64,000 nt of DNA, taken from contig OX597819.1 of the NCBI GenBank assembly GCA_951406725.2, positions 81,282,001 through 81,346,000 of the forward strand, in the 5' to 3' direction. Both the position numbers and the translations under genes were made by a program. The notes below the pieces were generated by a model that was given only the letters and a program-made list of their open reading frames with translations, had not been told where the DNA came from and searched no databases. Within the stretch, counting starts at the first letter, position 1; each line of letters starts with the position of its first letter. Below are positions 3,748 through 49,297 of the stretch, one piece after another. The stretch is from Octopus vulgaris (lineage: Eukaryota).

Positions 3748-3922
3748 TAATAAAAGGGTTCAAAAGAATTGCTTCACCACACACCGAAGCTCAGAAATAG
3801 CAGCCAAAAATCTTAGCTATTTCTTCTACTTTAAAAATGGTCTTCTAGAGAAACCAAAAAACTTGAAGGTTATTCACACAGGCAGAGAGTAAAGCAACGA
3901 AAATCAATCAATATCTGGTCGT

Positions 3923-4009
3923 CCATGGACGCGCGTTTCTGAATTAGGTTTTTCATAAAGGATATAAAAAAAATATATACTTTACCAACCATATTCTTCA
4001 TCAGCATGG
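3923..4009 (-). ncRNA. Type I hammerhead ribozyme (inverted copy)
   Basis: Minus strand: ccatg-CTGATGA-agaat...attca-GAAA-cgcgc-GTC-catgg, with a perfect 5-bp stem I. Confidence 0.78.
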
Positions 4010-4158
4010 TTTTCCGTGATAATTTGAAGATACTAGAATATTTGAACGAATCTTTCCACCTAACGGCATTAGACCGCTTATGTTCAATGTTAGCACCGCC
4101 AAATTCAAAATATGAATGAGGATCAATTATTCTGGTACCTTCGAATTATCACGGAAAA

Positions 4159-4244
4159 CCATGCTGATGAAGAATATGGTTAGTAAAGTATATATTTTTT
4201 TATATCCTTTATGAAAAACCTAATTCAGAAACGCGCGTCTATGG
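4159..4244 (+). ncRNA. Type I hammerhead ribozyme with enlarged stem/loop II
   Basis: ccatg-CTGATGA(4164-70)-a-gaat...attc-a-GAAA(4228-31)-cgcgc-GTC(4237-39)-tatgg. Palindromic helix III ACGCGCGT. Confidence 0.75.
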
Positions 4245-4521
4245 ACGACCAGATATTGATTGATTTTCGTTGCTTTACTCTCTACCTGTGTGAATAACCT
4301 TCAAGTATTTCGGTTTCTCTGGAAGACCCTTTTTAAAGTAGAAGAAATAGCTAAGATTTTTGGCTGCTATTTCTGAGCTTCGGTGTGTGGTGAAGCAATT
4401 CTTTGCTGAACCCTTTTTATTAGTATTACTTAAGTTTACCGTGAAACGGTCCTGTTTTCATACCGAATTCTACTTGGTGAAATTATTGATTACTTCTTAA
4501 TTAATTAATTTTATCCTTTGT

Positions 4522-7490: not shown

Positions 7491-8548
7491 GTATTAATAA
7501 AACAGGAGATGGAATGCGTAATAGATTTTATTGGGTACAAAATATGTTTCGACCCGTTCTGGGTCTCTTCAGGTACATAAATAAAATGTCTCACTAGAGA
7601 CCGGATACCGTAAGAAAATCCAGCATTCCAGTAGTAGTAATAATAATAACAACTCTTATAACTCAACTAGTAATAATACGATTCATTGTAACAACTTTAC
7701 CAACCACAGCCATAACTACACACACAAGGTCAAAAACCTAGATAATAGAATCCCAAACTATACGATAAGACTAAACAAACCCAGACACATTAGAATCAAC
7801 CATGAGTTAGAAAAACTTGTAACAGGCAACAAATTAAACATCTAACCCCACAAAATCTAATTACCGCTTCAAGCACTCAGACATACAGACCTAACCGAAA
7901 ATATAAAAACCATGACGTCCTTTGGTATAACCCAATCTGGAGCTCCAACATCTCATCTAAGATCACGAAACAATTTTTTCAGTGCACTTGATCGCGGCTT
8001 TCCTAAAAGTGGAGTGTACAATAAAATTTCAACCGTTACACTATAAAACTATCCTATGCAAATTCAACAAACTTAGAGCACCATATTCATAGGATTAGCA
8101 ACTGTAAACTGAGGCGAAGATTAAGCAGCACTCAAAATAGCTTTTTCAACTTCAACTATAACTCACATGACCAACCTAAAAATAACGTTTATGCTACCAA
8201 CCAACGTACCGAACAGAAACAATCCCTCCAGCGCTCGATGTACACAAGCTAACAAAAGTAAACAGTTATGCTCATGTAGAGATAGAACCACTTTTCGTTT
8301 GGATAACCAATGTATGACTAAGAACGTGGTATACAAGTGCACTATAAACACTAGAAGAGGCTCCTGTGTATGTATCGGGGCATCGGCCGATTTTTTCAAA
8401 AATCGATACTACAACCGCATCGCCAGCTTTTGAAACATCCTTAAACGACATGTAACATCGCTAGCCGATCTTATCTGGAGGCTACAGGAAGCGAAGACAA
8501 AATACGACCTTGCATGGTTCATACTTAGACACGCGAGTCCTTTCGTCT
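7491..8548 (+). mobile_element. Decayed Penelope-like element: thumb/linker plus GIY-YIG endonuclease, with inverted 5' hammerhead segment
   Basis: Frameshifted translation LWYNPIWSSNISSKITKQF..FPK..FNRYTIKLSY (~7920-8060), then CSCRDRTTFRLDNQCMTKNVVYKCTI..CIGASADFFKNRYYNRIASF (ORF 8167-8433), then TSLADLIWRLQ..YDLAWFILRHASPF. Starts immediately after (TA)n. Confidence 0.8.
7535..7576 (-). ncRNA. Minimal type I hammerhead (helix III slightly degenerate)
   Basis: Minus strand: gtac-CTGAAGA-gaccc agaac gggtc-GAAA-catat-TTT-gtac, followed by AATAAA. Confidence 0.7.
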
Positions 8549-13222: not shown

Positions 13223-13649
13223 AGATCCAAGGATCGAGGTGTAGGAAGAAACTTAGCTTCAAGCAATCCGTAGTAAACACAGAAAGCAACTTACAGGAAC
13301 AATAGCGGTTTATCGATACGGAAGTCTGTGAATTTTTTCTTATCGAAGTATGATAAATTGAAAAAGTTCATTTTATACTTCACGGTAGACAACCAGGGTT
13401 ACTGGTTATGCGAATAAGAATGCAAGAGTTAAGGAATGGAGTAGATAAGATCCAGGCTACATATGTTTCATAGCGAGCGGAGCCTCGGAAGAGGTAAATA
13501 TCCAAACTAGGTGTATACCGCAGGCTACTCTTCCTGAAGAGTAGCCTGTGGAATACACCTAGTTTGGATATTTACCATCACTTCCGATTTTCCGCTCACT
13601 ATGAAACATATGTAGCCTGGATTTTATCTACTCCATGCCTTAACTCTTG
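13222..13649. mobile_element. Microsatellite-flanked inverted-repeat insertion with hammerhead core at the hairpin apex
   Basis: Arms 13423-13533 / 13536-13649. CTGAAGA(13534-40)-gtag...ctat-GAAA(13603-06)-catat-GTA(13612-14)-gcctgg. Confidence 0.75.
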
Positions 13650-14289: not shown

Positions 14290-15460
14290 TTGATTTTAAA
14301 TTTTGGCACAAGGCCAGAAATTTCGAGGGAGGTGACAAGTCGATTACATCGATCCCAGCATTGAACTGGTACTTATTTTATCGATCTCAAAAAGATGAAA
14401 GCCAAAGTAGATCTCGGCGGTATTTGAACTCAGAACGTAAAAACGGACGAAATGCCGCTAAGTATTTTGCCAGGCGCGGTAACGTTTCCGCCACAGTTAA
14501 TGGCGACGAAATGAGCTCAAATTCCGCCGTAGTCGACTTTGCCCTTCATCCATTCGGAATTGAAAAAATAGATATTATTCACATACTGGGATCGATGTAC
14601 ATGAGTTCCCTCTCTCAAAAACAGCTGGTCTGAGTCAAAATTTGAAACCATTATTATGAATAACAGTACAAGACGGTAAGCTGGCAAAATCGTTAGCACG
14701 CTGGACAAAATACTTAGCGGTCTTTCGTCTGTCTTCATGTTCTGAGTTCAAATTCCACCGAAGTTAGCTTTATCTTTCGTCGTTTCGAGGTTGATAAAAA
14801 AAGTGCCAGTTAAGTCGTAGGATCGATATAGCCGACTAACCATCTCCATTAAAAATTTCTGGCATTTTTGCCTTCATTAGAAAGGAATTCCATCATTGCT
14901 ATTGGTAACAGCAAAAGGTGGAAAGCTTACAGAATCGTTAGCACGATGGGAAGATGCATAGCGGCATGTCTTCGGGCTCTTTACCTACTGAGTTCAAATA
15001 CTGCCAGGGTTGACTTTTTTTTACATCGTAAAATTTACTAGCCTAGTGTCAAAGTTTGAAACCACCCTTAATGATAATTACAAAGGCGGAAAGTTGGCAG
15101 AATCGTTAGAGCGCCGGAAAAAAATCCTTGTAGTATTTGTACCGGATGTTTAGGTTCTGGGTTCACATCACGTCGAAATCAGCCAATTTTGGTTTCCATC
15201 TTTTTTTTCGGGCTCGATAAATTAAAGAACTGGCCAAGAACTGGGGTTGATGATATTGACTAATACCTCTCAAAATTGCTGTCTTTGAGCCTTAATCAAA
15301 AAGCGTTATTAATAGTAGTTATAGGGTGGCGATCTGGCGGAATTGTTAGCACGCCGGGAAAAATTCTTTGCAGCAGTTCGTCCGTCTTTATGTTCCGAGT
15401 TCAAATTCTGCCAAGGTCGACTTCATCTTTTATCCTGGAGGTCGATAAAATAAGTATCAG
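14290..15460. mobile_element. Cluster of about six diverged tRNA-SINE copies (first minus, rest plus)
   Basis: Repeated (G/C)AGAAT(C/T)GTTAG / GAGTTCAAAT / TCGATAAA blocks near 14290(-), 14500, 14672, 14915, 15083, 15325. Confidence 0.8.
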
Positions 15461-25273: not shown

Positions 25274-25278
<5 letters not shown>

Positions 25279-25532
25279 ACATAATTATAATTAGGGCTCA
25301 GCTAACTGCTTCACCAAATACCAAAATTAGAAATAGGAGTTTAAAAATTCCCATTCTGCTACTATAAGAATCTTATAGTAGCATAAAGGGAATTTTTTAA
25401 CTCCTATTTCTAATTTTGCTATTTGGTGAAGCAGTTAGCTGAGCCCTAGTTATAATTATGTGGATAATTTTACCTATAAAAGTTATTTTAACGTACCGTT
25501 CAAGTATTCACCCTAAATTTACAGTACCTAGT
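25274..25532. mobile_element. (TA)n-flanked hairpin insertion, same architecture as 3747 element but without a hammerhead
   Basis: Arms 25274-25369 / 25371-25466 with a 1-nt loop, plus ~65 bp single tail. Shares CTATTTCT...TGGTGAAGCA.TT..GCTGA.CCCT with 4367-4414. Confidence 0.75.
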
Positions 25533-25542
25533 ATATATATAT

Positions 25543-25897
25543 AAATTTTTGTGAAAATTATTTGATACAGTTTTACCGAGTATAAAAACAAAATTCTTTA
25601 AAAAAGTTATTGTAAAAAGCAAGTTGTAAATTCTTTATCAGAACATCACTAACCTTTTTGGAAAAAGTTTCTTTCTAGTGTGTGTGAGCTCTTTCATTTC
25701 CAAAATGTAGACTGTTGGCGATCTTTTTACTTCCGTCTTGCTTTTCTCTTGAACTTTCCGCTGTCTCCTGTTTCTGAAGAAGAGTTTTGCTCGAAACGTA
25801 AAACACCCTTTCTTTCCTTCTCTGAGTGTCCTATTAATACTTTGCATGCACGACGTTGTTTTTTTGTTGTCTTTTGTCTCCGTTTTTTTTATTAACT
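25543..25897 (+). mobile_element. Microsatellite-flanked hammerhead-bearing element
   Basis: Homologous to 33658-33858 (GTTGGCGAT...TGTTTC.GA.GAAGAG...GCTCGAAACGT.AAAC...CTGAG.GTCC...ATTAAC-TA). Confidence 0.75.
25769..25805 (+). ncRNA. Ultra-minimal type I hammerhead
   Basis: tgttt-CTGAAGA(25774-80)-a-gag ttttg ctc-GAAA-c-GTA(25798-800)-aaaca. Helix III is only the ACGT palindrome. Confidence 0.75.
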
Positions 25898-46708: not shown

Positions 46709-47329
46709 GGATCTTTACCTTTTGACCTACAGATTTTTAAAATAATTTTTCGTAACTAAACACTTTTAATCTTCGGACACTGGTAGAATGTGTCATATAA
46801 AACATGTTTTACTCTTAGCATTTTTGAGAAAAACTTATATTTACGAAGATATTTCACCTTAAAGTTCTTGTATTTCGGTAATTTCAACCAATCAATGACG
46901 TATATTCAGCTGAATAAAATTACTGCCGTTGTCTGTCAACAACTATCGGTGGTGTATTTTTCGCTTGTCACTGTTATTTATGACATCGTTCGTGCGTTTG
47001 TACTGGTTTTAGGGTTAGGGTTTTAGGGTTAGGGTTTTAGGGTTAGGGTTGTCATAAATAACAGTGACAAACAAAATATACACCGCCGGAAGTTCTTGTT
47101 GACAAACAACAGCAGTAATTTTATTCAGCTGAATACACGTCATTGATTGGTTGAAATTACCGAAATACGAGAAATTTAAGGCGAAATATCTTCATAAATA
47201 TAAGTTTTTCCCAAAAATGCTAAGAGTAAAACATGTTTTATATGACACATTCTACCAGTGTCTGAAGTTTGAAAGTGTTTAGTTACAAAAAATTCTTTTT
47301 TTAAATCTGTTGGTCAAAATCAAAAATCC
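46709..47329. mobile_element. Foldback MITE with ~280-bp TIRs and telomere-like spacer (Mutator- or Merlin-like)
   Basis: Arms ~46709-46985 / ~47050-47329, GG...CC termini, flanks tttgatct / tttgatcc, centre (TTTTAGGGTTAGGG)x3. Confidence 0.85.
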
Positions 47330-47563: not shown

Positions 47564-47932
47564 GTACAAACACCTGTCATACCTTACCTTGTTGTACATA
47601 TTCGACAGTATAGTTTCTGTGTTTCTTTCGATAATTTATCCATGCTTCTGAAAATATCCTTTTGATTACAGAATTTTCTCTTTATTACAACTTTCAATCA
47701 ATGAAGTGTCTACTATAGAACTTTTTCTTTCTTCTTTTAACGCTGCTACAACAATAATGCTTTCAATAACTTCACAAACATAGACGCAGACGTGGTAACA
47801 AGTTTGCTTCCTAACCACATGGCTCCCTGCTCACTCCCACTGTGTAGCACCTTGGGCAAGTATCTTTTACTGGAACTTCGAGCCGACTAAAGCCCTGTGA
47901 GCGGATTTGTAAGACCGAAACTGAAAGAAACT

Positions 47933-47965
<33 letters not shown>

Positions 47966-48188
47966 CTTTATTTTAAGCAGCAGAAAATTCAACAAAATCT
48001 GTTACTCTGAGTTTCTCGTTGCCGTTCATCAGACAGTTTTTGCTAAAACTGTCTGATGAACGGCAACGAGAAACTCAGAGTAACAGATTTTGTTGAATTT
48101 TCTGCTGCTTAAAATAAAGCATATTACTCTACCACTGGTATTTGAGTACTCTTTTTTCCACCTTGTTTCACATTTATGTGTTTACTCC

Positions 48189-48190
<2 letters not shown>
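47966..48190. mobile_element. (TA)n-flanked perfect hairpin with two head-to-head hammerheads
   Basis: 75-bp arms 47966-48040 / 48045-48119 are exact reverse complements, loop TGCT, ~70 bp single tail. Confidence 0.9.
48045..48091 (+). ncRNA. Minimal type I hammerhead (mirror copy on minus strand at ~47994-48040)
   Basis: aaaactgt-CTGATGA(48053-59)-a-cg gcaa cg-a-GAAA(48070-73)-ctcaga-GTA(48080-82)-acagatttt. Helix III ACTC-A-GAGT. Confidence 0.8.
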
Positions 48191-48228
<38 letters not shown>

Positions 48229-49297
48229 TGTGTGTGCGCGTGCCTTTGTATCTGTGTTTATCCCTGCAACTTAGTGGTTCGGCAAAAGAGACCGATAGAT
48301 TAAATACCAGGCTTTAAAAATTGAATTGTTGTAGGTGAAGCAAAAGCGTTAATTTTATCAACACTGGAAAAATAAAAGTTATAAGTAAGTTTGGTGAGAT
48401 TCGAATTCACAATATCCCATGGTATTTTTTAAAATCTAACTCTGTTGATTCTAGTACTTCAGATGTCCACCGTCCTAGTACTTACAGCACAATACTGACT
48501 GTGTTAACTCGCCCAATATCCCAACTTTATTATTGTAGCGAGTTACTTTTTGTGACAACAGCTTTTATTTTCTAACATCGCTTGACAAACCGGTGTCATA
48601 TTTTTTATGTCATTGCATCTTAGCTGTTCAGTAAAAAAATAAGTTCCAGGGGCCATTTGTTCGACTAAACCTTCCAATGTGGTGCCCAAGCATAGCCCAA
48701 CATGGCTCAGCAAAGACTAAAACAAGCAAAGCAAATAAATAAATAAATAAACAACCAATGTTTTGCTGCGAAATAAACTTTTCCATTATCTGTTTAGCTG
48801 ACAAGTATTTCTCAGTTAACAAAGTTAGTCTTTTATCCTACCTCACAGAAACAGACCAAAGACAACATAAGTCTTCAACTCCCCCATATATTCAGATATC
48901 TTTCTACTATCTCCAAAGTTACGAAAAGATAAGAAATAGCCAGCTTCTAAATCTAACAGATAACCCTTTGATCTATGGCCGTGTATCACTTCAAGAAAAC
49001 TTTTAGTCAGCTAATACTACAGTGATAGTATAAAATCACGTTTTTTTAAAGTAACAAGGTTTTTGATAAAATTTGGCACCGAAGTTTATTCTAAAGGCTA
49101 CCCTTTCCAAGAGATCAACTGAAACCGCCTTACTTTCAATCTTTATGAATGACGATTTGTCTAATCTCACAGTTACTCGTCTTTCATTCATAGTTCAGTT
49201 ACAAACTAGTTTCTTCATCAAGGATACTATACTGGCAATAATACATACGTTCCGTCTTTCATCCAACCGGCAATCACATCAAATTTCGGTATGTGAA

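Follow-up and report, generated by a model that had tools for sequence, protein, structure and literature searches.

A perfect hammerhead hairpin in the Octopus vulgaris genome is probably a minimal insertion of a Hydra-clade Penelope-like element

Penelope-like elements typically show an inverted 5'-truncated copy, a tail at one end only and a preference for microsatellites as targets (PMC8557442; here and below, statements on cited papers refer to the portions of their texts and supplements available to us). The Hydra clade of these elements (Craig et al. 2021, PMC8557442), which includes Hydra-2_aMil, Hydra-1_Obim and Penelope-13_HM, combines a C-terminal GIY-YIG domain with RWK, DKT, CxCX5C, CxxC and CxH motifs, a (TA)n target and a hammerhead in the end repeat, and the octopus family described here is like it in all these traits. 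Head to head is the most frequent arrangement of copies in Adineta vaga, with palindromes at the join (PMC3846280), and Schistosoma elements carry two minimal hammerheads, one on each strand, at a distance of 100-700 bp (PMC4209133, 2014). A Penelope protein was reported to cut and extend both target strands, and in the PAc element of Anolis the tail is bounded by the two internal sites at which reverse transcription begins (PMC11167929). Pseudo-LTRs in head-to-head order, a tail, insertion into (TA)n and hammerheads of this type are all published already; the origin of the inverted ends is stated as open in both PMC8557442 and PMC11167929, and a limited literature search returned no description of the octopus family itself.

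We analysed a stretch of 64,000 nt of the Octopus vulgaris genome (hereafter the window), in which a sequence-only reading had pointed out a perfect 75-bp hairpin formed by two hammerheads. The hairpin is indeed perfect: 47966-48040 and 48045-48119 are reverse complements over 75 bp with no mismatch and 4 nt in between (Table 1). On each strand the stretch is predicted to fold into a single hairpin, at about -136 kcal/mol, and the order of the arms, together with the motif scan, bears out the claim that the antisense copy is met first on either strand. The 4 nt that had been called a loop are present but are no spacer. With elements numbered so that 48045 is position +1, 48041-48044 correspond to positions about -4 to 0, i.e. 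to upstream sequence of the element that belongs to the left arm only, and the join has a 1-nt overlap at 48045. Matching upstream sequence is seen in a copy with an open reading frame (L086).

Table 1. Features of the hairpin locus (positions in the window)
Feature	Position	Strand	Basis
5' part of the older dispersed repeat (insertion target)	47780..47937	+	72-80% matches, 53 hits (fetched loci and window)
(TA)14, left half of the target microsatellite	47938..47965	.	sequence
Inverted 'short' arm, pseudo-LTR -4 to +75	47966..48045	-	includes 48041-48044 and the overlap at 48045
Minimal type-I hammerhead motif, antisense as seen from +	47999..48036	-	motif scan; mirror of 48049-48086
Direct hairpin arm, pseudo-LTR +1 to +75	48045..48119	+	arm comparison
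Minimal type-I hammerhead motif	48049..48086	+	sequence, constrained fold
Stem I	48049-48052/48083-48086	+	sequence
Hammerhead core	48053-48059	+	sequence
Weak stem II	48060-48069	+	sequence
GAA	48070-48072	+	sequence
Palindromic helix III	48073-48081	+	self-duplex -7.4 kcal/mol
Predicted cut	after 48082	+	motif layout
71-nt 'tail', on one arm only	48120..48190	+	in full copies continuous with the ORF's 5' leader
(TA)17, right half of the target microsatellite	48191..48225	.	sequence
3' part of the interrupted repeat, resuming in register	48226..48320	+	repeat matches; loose contig ends

The hairpin had also been placed in the internal (TA)n of a SINE. There is (TA)n on both sides, and it belongs to an older dispersed repeat that the hairpin interrupts; this repeat we presume to be a SINE. 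Its 5' part has a very high summed contig depth. Copies free of the insert, in which head, (TA)n and body follow one another, were found as 13 hit pairs at 11 distinct places (among 147 loci and the window), with (TA)n/(TG)n as the joining tract, and another hairpin of the family (L148) sits at the same spot in another copy of the repeat. These flanks bear on the possibility that the hairpin is a fold-back read chimera or an assembly artefact, which we regard as highly improbable. No contig from six independent runs bridged the junction, as this possibility would have it, but contigs break at repeats; the flanks are no mirror images of each other, the interrupted repeat continues in register beyond the insert, the two ends coincide with the two fixed end points of the family (see below), and the 32-nt junction of this hairpin recurs identically at 12 places on 9 contigs. 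Downstream, a segment of about 250 nt with single-copy depth (48321-48569) splits the 3' part of the SINE-like repeat and has no match in the fetched loci; within it, the assembly has A at 48333 and all 4 sequencing runs compared have G, a rare allele or an assembly error.

Comparison with the rest of the genome (an assembly of 2.8 Gb in 227 contigs) gives the hairpin an identity that its description as a SINE-nested ribozyme hairpin had missed. The 146-nt unit on the right-hand side (48045-48190) matches, letter for letter, the pseudo-LTR of L086, and is 99-100% identical to those of other ORF-bearing copies, in agreement with the earlier view that the locus is young. Judged by its sequence, the unit is the pseudo-LTR of a young Penelope-like element with Hydra-clade motifs in its protein. 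A protein search of the genome returned 150 scored copies at 97-100% identity, from which 20 loci were fetched for their open frame of 727 aa. The unit lies about 1 kb behind the ORF in all 20, and in 15 of them the whole unit also stands directly before the ORF, continuing into its leader. The 727-aa frames contain RWK, DKT, YRDDG, GIY-YIG-like, CxxC..E and N..CxH motifs in 20/20 cases and the CxCX5C linker in 12/20, so that the set expected of Hydra-clade proteins (RWK, DKT, CxCX5C, and CxxC/CxH around E and N) is present; CCHH was judged absent by eye. Look-alikes of the protein in the Atlas (0.96-0.99) carry GIY-YIG, RVT_1 and HTH_animal. Neither three pieces of the ORF nor the 727-aa frame had a hit in Pfam, and a sequence search of the PDB with the protein returned chance-level hits only. 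By eye, the protein closely follows the published Hydra alignment blocks (PMC8557442), and we place the family in the Hydra clade on these matching motifs and this likeness of alignment.

The architecture of the copies fits the same assignment. As in Penelope-like elements with an endonuclease, an ORF with reverse transcriptase and GIY-YIG lies between pseudo-LTRs, copies are truncated at the 5' end, partial tandems and inverted 5'-truncated copies occur (the latter being the published standard layout), and an optional tail marks one end, of 30-40 bp in the general description and of 71 nt here. The (TA)n preference of the Hydra clade is found as well, with TA-rich sequence on both flanks of 45 of 50 sampled hairpin loci. 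Three loci (L097, L099 and L100, with 5' ends near 2706-2715) are full-length, unit-length, circularly permuted insertions, which start at about +66 to +77 after TA-rich sequence, end at +75 to +80 and have no hammerhead at the 5' end. Two other types of element were considered and rejected. Non-LTR retrozymes are head-to-tail tandems of non-coding units of a few hundred nt, with no ORF. The octopus unit comes from an ORF-bearing element and its locus is head to head (retrozymes are the subject of a preprint, bioRxiv 10.64898/2026.07.22.740005). A MITE or foldback DNA transposon would have symmetric terminal inverted repeats with fixed ends, and here the ends are asymmetric, the joins variable and the lengths a continuum.

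Among the listed Hydra-clade elements, Hydra-2_aMil (File S2 of PMC8557442) shares stem I and core with 48049-48086 and has a near-identical helix III, and, as here, the entry for Penelope-13_HM shows an inverted copy truncated at the 5' end, with hammerheads on both strands. The hammerhead listed for Hydra-1_oBim differs from that of the octopus family and marks it as a different family (PMC8557442); the 17-nt core of the octopus unit was not found in the parts of the supplement text of PMC8557442 that were searched. The full-length octopus unit is longer than usual, at about 3.35 kb with a 3' UTR of 1 kb, whereas Hydra-clade elements are as a rule below 3 kb, and its stem II, with 2 pairs and an A.A, is unlike the listed hammerheads of the clade. 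The Penelopes of Adineta vaga (PMC3846280) are alike in head-to-head pseudo-LTRs, in a palindromic join and in a tail on a single arm, of 30-40 nt in the rotifer and 71 nt in the octopus, and the Schistosoma elements (PMC4209133) in their dual minimal hammerheads on opposite strands. Unlike both, the octopus family most often yields a non-coding minimal hairpin of about 230 bp, at more than 1,200 loci. Poseidon PAc of Anolis (PMC11167929) shares with the octopus family two fixed 3' ends bounding a tail, an AT-rich target and a hammerhead just upstream of the ends. The ORF of PAc starts in stem II and its tail is coding, whereas in the octopus family the tail precedes the ORF as far as the sequence tells.

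The sequence-only reading had treated the geometry of the hairpin as special. This did not survive counting of exact sequence patterns across the assembly: the locus is far beyond chance as a sequence, yet not rare in the genome. The 17-nt core of the unit has 9,328 exact copies and a 35-nt pattern of the unit 7,278. Head-to-head pairs with a gap of 40-70 nt between cores occur at 1,283 loci, 12 with the identical junction, and a further 230 loci have a gap of 71-101; pairs joined inside or past the ribozyme core were counted at 187 loci with a different probe, and a single tail-to-tail pair was found in the one gap bin searched (125-155). Among the first 100 of the 7,278 matches listed, there are 17 head-to-head pairs below 250 bp and 7 at 250-5,000 bp. 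The long pairs enclose coding sequence for reverse transcriptase and endonuclease; L034, for example, repeats the outline of the 47966 hairpin over 4.4 kb with both domains inside. Lengths span all sizes from below 100 bp to above 4 kb.

A sample made of the first 50 of the 1,283 pairs listed (all on contig C1, skewed to young copies by a 34-base exact pattern, and with L119 and L120 possibly one duplicated locus) shows how strictly these pairs are built. They consist of one tailed and one short arm in 47 cases, and neither two tailed nor two short arms were seen. Of 10 loci with the junction of the 47966 hairpin, all but L107 and L113 were parsed in the same comparison. The arms do not differ at all in 25 pairs (over the 50-75 nt compared), and 18 of the 50 have a perfect stem of at least 75 bp with a loop of at most 10 nt, which would amount to about 460 equally perfect hairpins genome-wide if the 1,283 are well represented by the sample. 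Perfection of the arms is the normal state of young copies, and the 47966 hairpin is not exceptional. In 100 arms we found two fixed 3' ends, with 53 short arms ending at +75 to +80, 44 tailed arms ending at about +146 and 3 others; 43 of the 100 have no inverted partner within 480 nt.

The hammerhead is less robust than the hairpin that contains it. Both arms contain CUGAUGA, GAAA and GUA in type-I order, and the motif has the CUGANGA, GAAA and NUH elements, the stem I and the palindromic helix III of the minimal type-I hammerheads of Penelope-like elements. The core had been called intact, which holds for the conserved single-stranded bases; stem II is reduced to 2 Watson-Crick pairs and an A.A mismatch in place of the paired 10.1-11.1 position and stable stem usual in these hammerheads, and helix III is of the dimer type, its palindrome being able to pair with a second copy of the motif. 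Rfam returned no match at gathering thresholds in the whole window. Other members of the family are variable at the same places: the 3' base of stem II is T (giving an A-U pair) in 9/96 arms and G in 14/96, other variants having A-U or A.G where this subfamily has A.A, and position 4 of the core is C and not U in 22/94 arms (among L049-L063 and L114-L148), in which stem II is better paired or different. The commonest variant has the canonical core and one unpaired base in stem II. The computed probability of the ribozyme fold is about 1e-4, for the core alone as in its natural context, and 2e-8 in the 146-nt unit. Nearest-neighbour folding models underrate hammerhead junctions, and such low values are therefore no proof of inactivity.

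These computations nonetheless predict that a single arm is a poor ribozyme, which comes close to the result, an inactive single arm, that the sequence-only reading had itself named as counting against it. The motif is predicted to be weak alone, being of the dimer type in a head-to-head pair, where each strand has a single sense copy. In published experiments, single motifs of this minimal type did not cleave (PMC4209133); one hammerhead did not cleave without the protein of its element, and insertion did not need ribozyme cleavage (both PMC11167929). Within the hairpin the ribozyme fold would cost about 78 kcal/mol more than the duplex, so that the claimed sequestration of the hammerhead in double-stranded RNA is borne out, by computation, for any read-through RNA. 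The antisense arm would lock a motif whose activity is probably low in any case and which lacks a tandem partner at 48049-48086.

The earlier reading had gone further and proposed that the antisense arm, by neutralising the ribozyme in host pre-mRNA and feeding ADAR or Dicer, may account for the retention of inverted pairs. A number of arguments make this very improbable. The folding computation does predict the duplex that ADAR or Dicer would require, and this duplex would dominate any read-through RNA; 27.5% of the exact cores (2,566/9,328) are in such pairs, and joins peak just upstream of the ribozyme, so that most short pairs cover it whole (1,283 loci against the 230 and 187 of the other classes), a peak that would also be expected under selection for complete hairpins. 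However, related minimal hammerheads were inactive singly or without the protein of their element, as noted above, and stem II is weakened in this very subfamily. The 5' limit of the arms (see below) is present in unpaired copies too. Unpaired copies and pairs with a broken ribozyme are common, and with 187 joins that break the core and 43 of 100 arms unpaired, the claim to explain the retention of inverted copies finds no support. Naiads, reported to have no canonical hammerhead, form the identical inverted layout. Likewise, no host exon was identified in the window among 69 frames of at least 90 aa, 8 of them scanned by Pfam (a survey that short exons could escape), which leaves neutralisation in host pre-mRNA equally unsupported. 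A limited literature search returned no paper on an antisense-locked hammerhead. Overall, the physical side of the interpretation is supported in part, but the significance claimed for it is not; we found support neither for selection nor for a host transcript.

One argument against retention by an antisense arm comes from the window itself. At 25277-25532, a second head-to-head hairpin lies between (TA) tracts, with arms of 93 nt that differ by 5 mismatches and have 1 nt between them, one arm being extended by a tail of about 65 nt; the motif scan finds no hammerhead core in it. In three relatives (L200, L203 and L204), a core resembling a hammerhead lies about 100 nt upstream of the join, and the hairpin probably comes from a different Penelope-like family, with its truncation point downstream of the ribozyme. 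Its family has 5 exact hits, hence it serves as a single-locus control. Other features of the window are listed for completeness. Five more hammerhead-like cores of other families lie at 25774 (+), 33738 (+), 7572 (-), 19272 (-) and 41644 (-), several of them near (TA)n, and the first two are related to each other. A remnant of a Penelope-like endonuclease may be present at 8125-8433. A foldback or MITE-like element at 46739-47299 has arms of about 250 nt at 91-94% and a short telomere-like tract at its centre (47005-47050), and further long inverted-repeat elements are found at 3763-4404, 14318-14857 and 13423-13649. The GC-richer segment 31478-31958 has two overlapping open frames and is a candidate host first exon; it gave a weak, sub-threshold Pfam hit, the sole one among the 8 window frames scanned.

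The hairpin is, in our opinion, very probably the shortest form of an ordinary Hydra-clade insertion into (TA)n, in which two cDNAs were likely joined and the burial of the hammerhead is likely a side effect. The positions of the ends suggest how this could come about. The 5' ends of 29 of 97 scored arms, unpaired copies included, fall at -8 to -5 and those of only 4 at -40 to -11; genome-wide, 3,367 copies extend to -7 and 1,904 to -13. The sequence at -8, CCATTCT, is presumably initiator-like, which would make -8 the 5' end of the element RNA and the arms run-off cDNAs. The joins, for their part, lie at palindromes or short overlaps, with an overlap of 0-6 nt in 33 of 50 pairs, and most often at CTAG (-5 to -2). 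A few joins near +39, where the 5' end of a ribozyme-cut RNA is expected, were seen by eye; microhomology in stem I explains them equally well.

A process compatible with these positions might involve 1) an RNA of the element with its 5' end at the wall at -8; 2) an enzyme that primes a short cDNA from each of the two cut target strands; 3) run-off of both cDNAs, to 80-155 nt, usually on a single RNA or on RNAs that share a source locus; 4) annealing of the cDNA ends by self-complementary bases such as CTAG, which would account for the commonest junction, and their joining; and 5) as the outcome, one 5'-truncated end repeat with the tail and one without it, head to head in (TA)n. All these steps are read from end positions only. 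In twin priming of LINE-1, cDNA is primed on both strands of the target, and microhomology joins the products into a 5' inversion. LINE-1 inversions copy adjacent, non-overlapping parts of the RNA, whereas the octopus family copies the same 75-80 nt twice, from two fixed starts. Twin priming at two start sites, with a single RNA or a single source locus behind both cDNAs and with joining at microhomology as the last step, is likely the simplest account of the family; a limited literature search did not turn up twin priming as an explanation for Penelope elements. The narrower version, in which one single RNA starting at -8 is copied twice from the two fixed starts by the cut target strands, we put forward tentatively, as somewhat less than an even chance.

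The match between the arms bears on the number of templates. At position 67, 1 of 34 young pairs is discordant between its arms against 13.7 expected, and 4 of 50 pairs differ between arms at a diagnostic subfamily site (L051 at two sites). Discordant pairs do occur at times, from two templates or later mutation. Such concordance would likewise arise from the dominance of a single source locus in a cell, and with 3 rare variants common to both arms against 31 private to one arm, direct support for the step from a single RNA is thin. The same counts concern the possibility that the arms became identical only later, in the inserted copy, through repair driven by the hairpin or through gene conversion, in which case the locus may be older than it appears. 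A few pairs do share rare variants on both arms (the 3 just mentioned; rows L104 and L112), but the predominance of private differences gives no sign of continuing homogenisation, and the unpaired tail of the 47966 locus is also identical to that of ORF-bearing copies. We regard this alternative as very unlikely, and would attribute the perfection of the arms to the youth of the copy.

The relative length of the arms, in turn, addresses the model proposed for rotifer Penelopes (PMC3846280), in which one strand bends back on a palindrome and primes its own extension, with the antisense strand as template. The joins at palindromes and short overlaps, as well as the arms that match at the subfamily sites, agree with this model. 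Self-priming from a cDNA started at the tail, however, would never leave the tailed arm shorter at its 5' end than the short arm. Instead, the tailed arm is longer in 9 pairs and the short arm in 10 of the 49 that could be classed, the two being within 2 nt of each other in 30 (1 pair was unclassed). The short arm is the longer one at the 47966 locus itself, and by about 1 kb in L034. That either arm may extend further 5' argues against the fold-back of a single tail-started cDNA, and we consider self-priming unlikely as the origin of these pairs, in favour of two cDNAs primed on the two cut strands.

Our analysis leaves little weight to the 47966 locus by itself, as hundreds of hairpins match its perfection. 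The value lies in the family, which is young and so abundant that counts separate models of how inverted ends are formed: the strict asymmetry of the tail, the possibility for either arm to be the longer one, the match between arms and the wall at the 5' end. If the pair is the likely by-product of the route of insertion, no device for silencing a ribozyme is required to explain it. Were both arms run-off copies of one RNA, the family would preserve, on the scale of the genome, a record of the step by which inverted Penelope insertions arise; it would mark the transcription start of the element and point to uncut RNA as the template in vivo. Finally, if many of these hairpins are transcribed, they may constitute a large, dispersed source of double-stranded RNA directed against the element.
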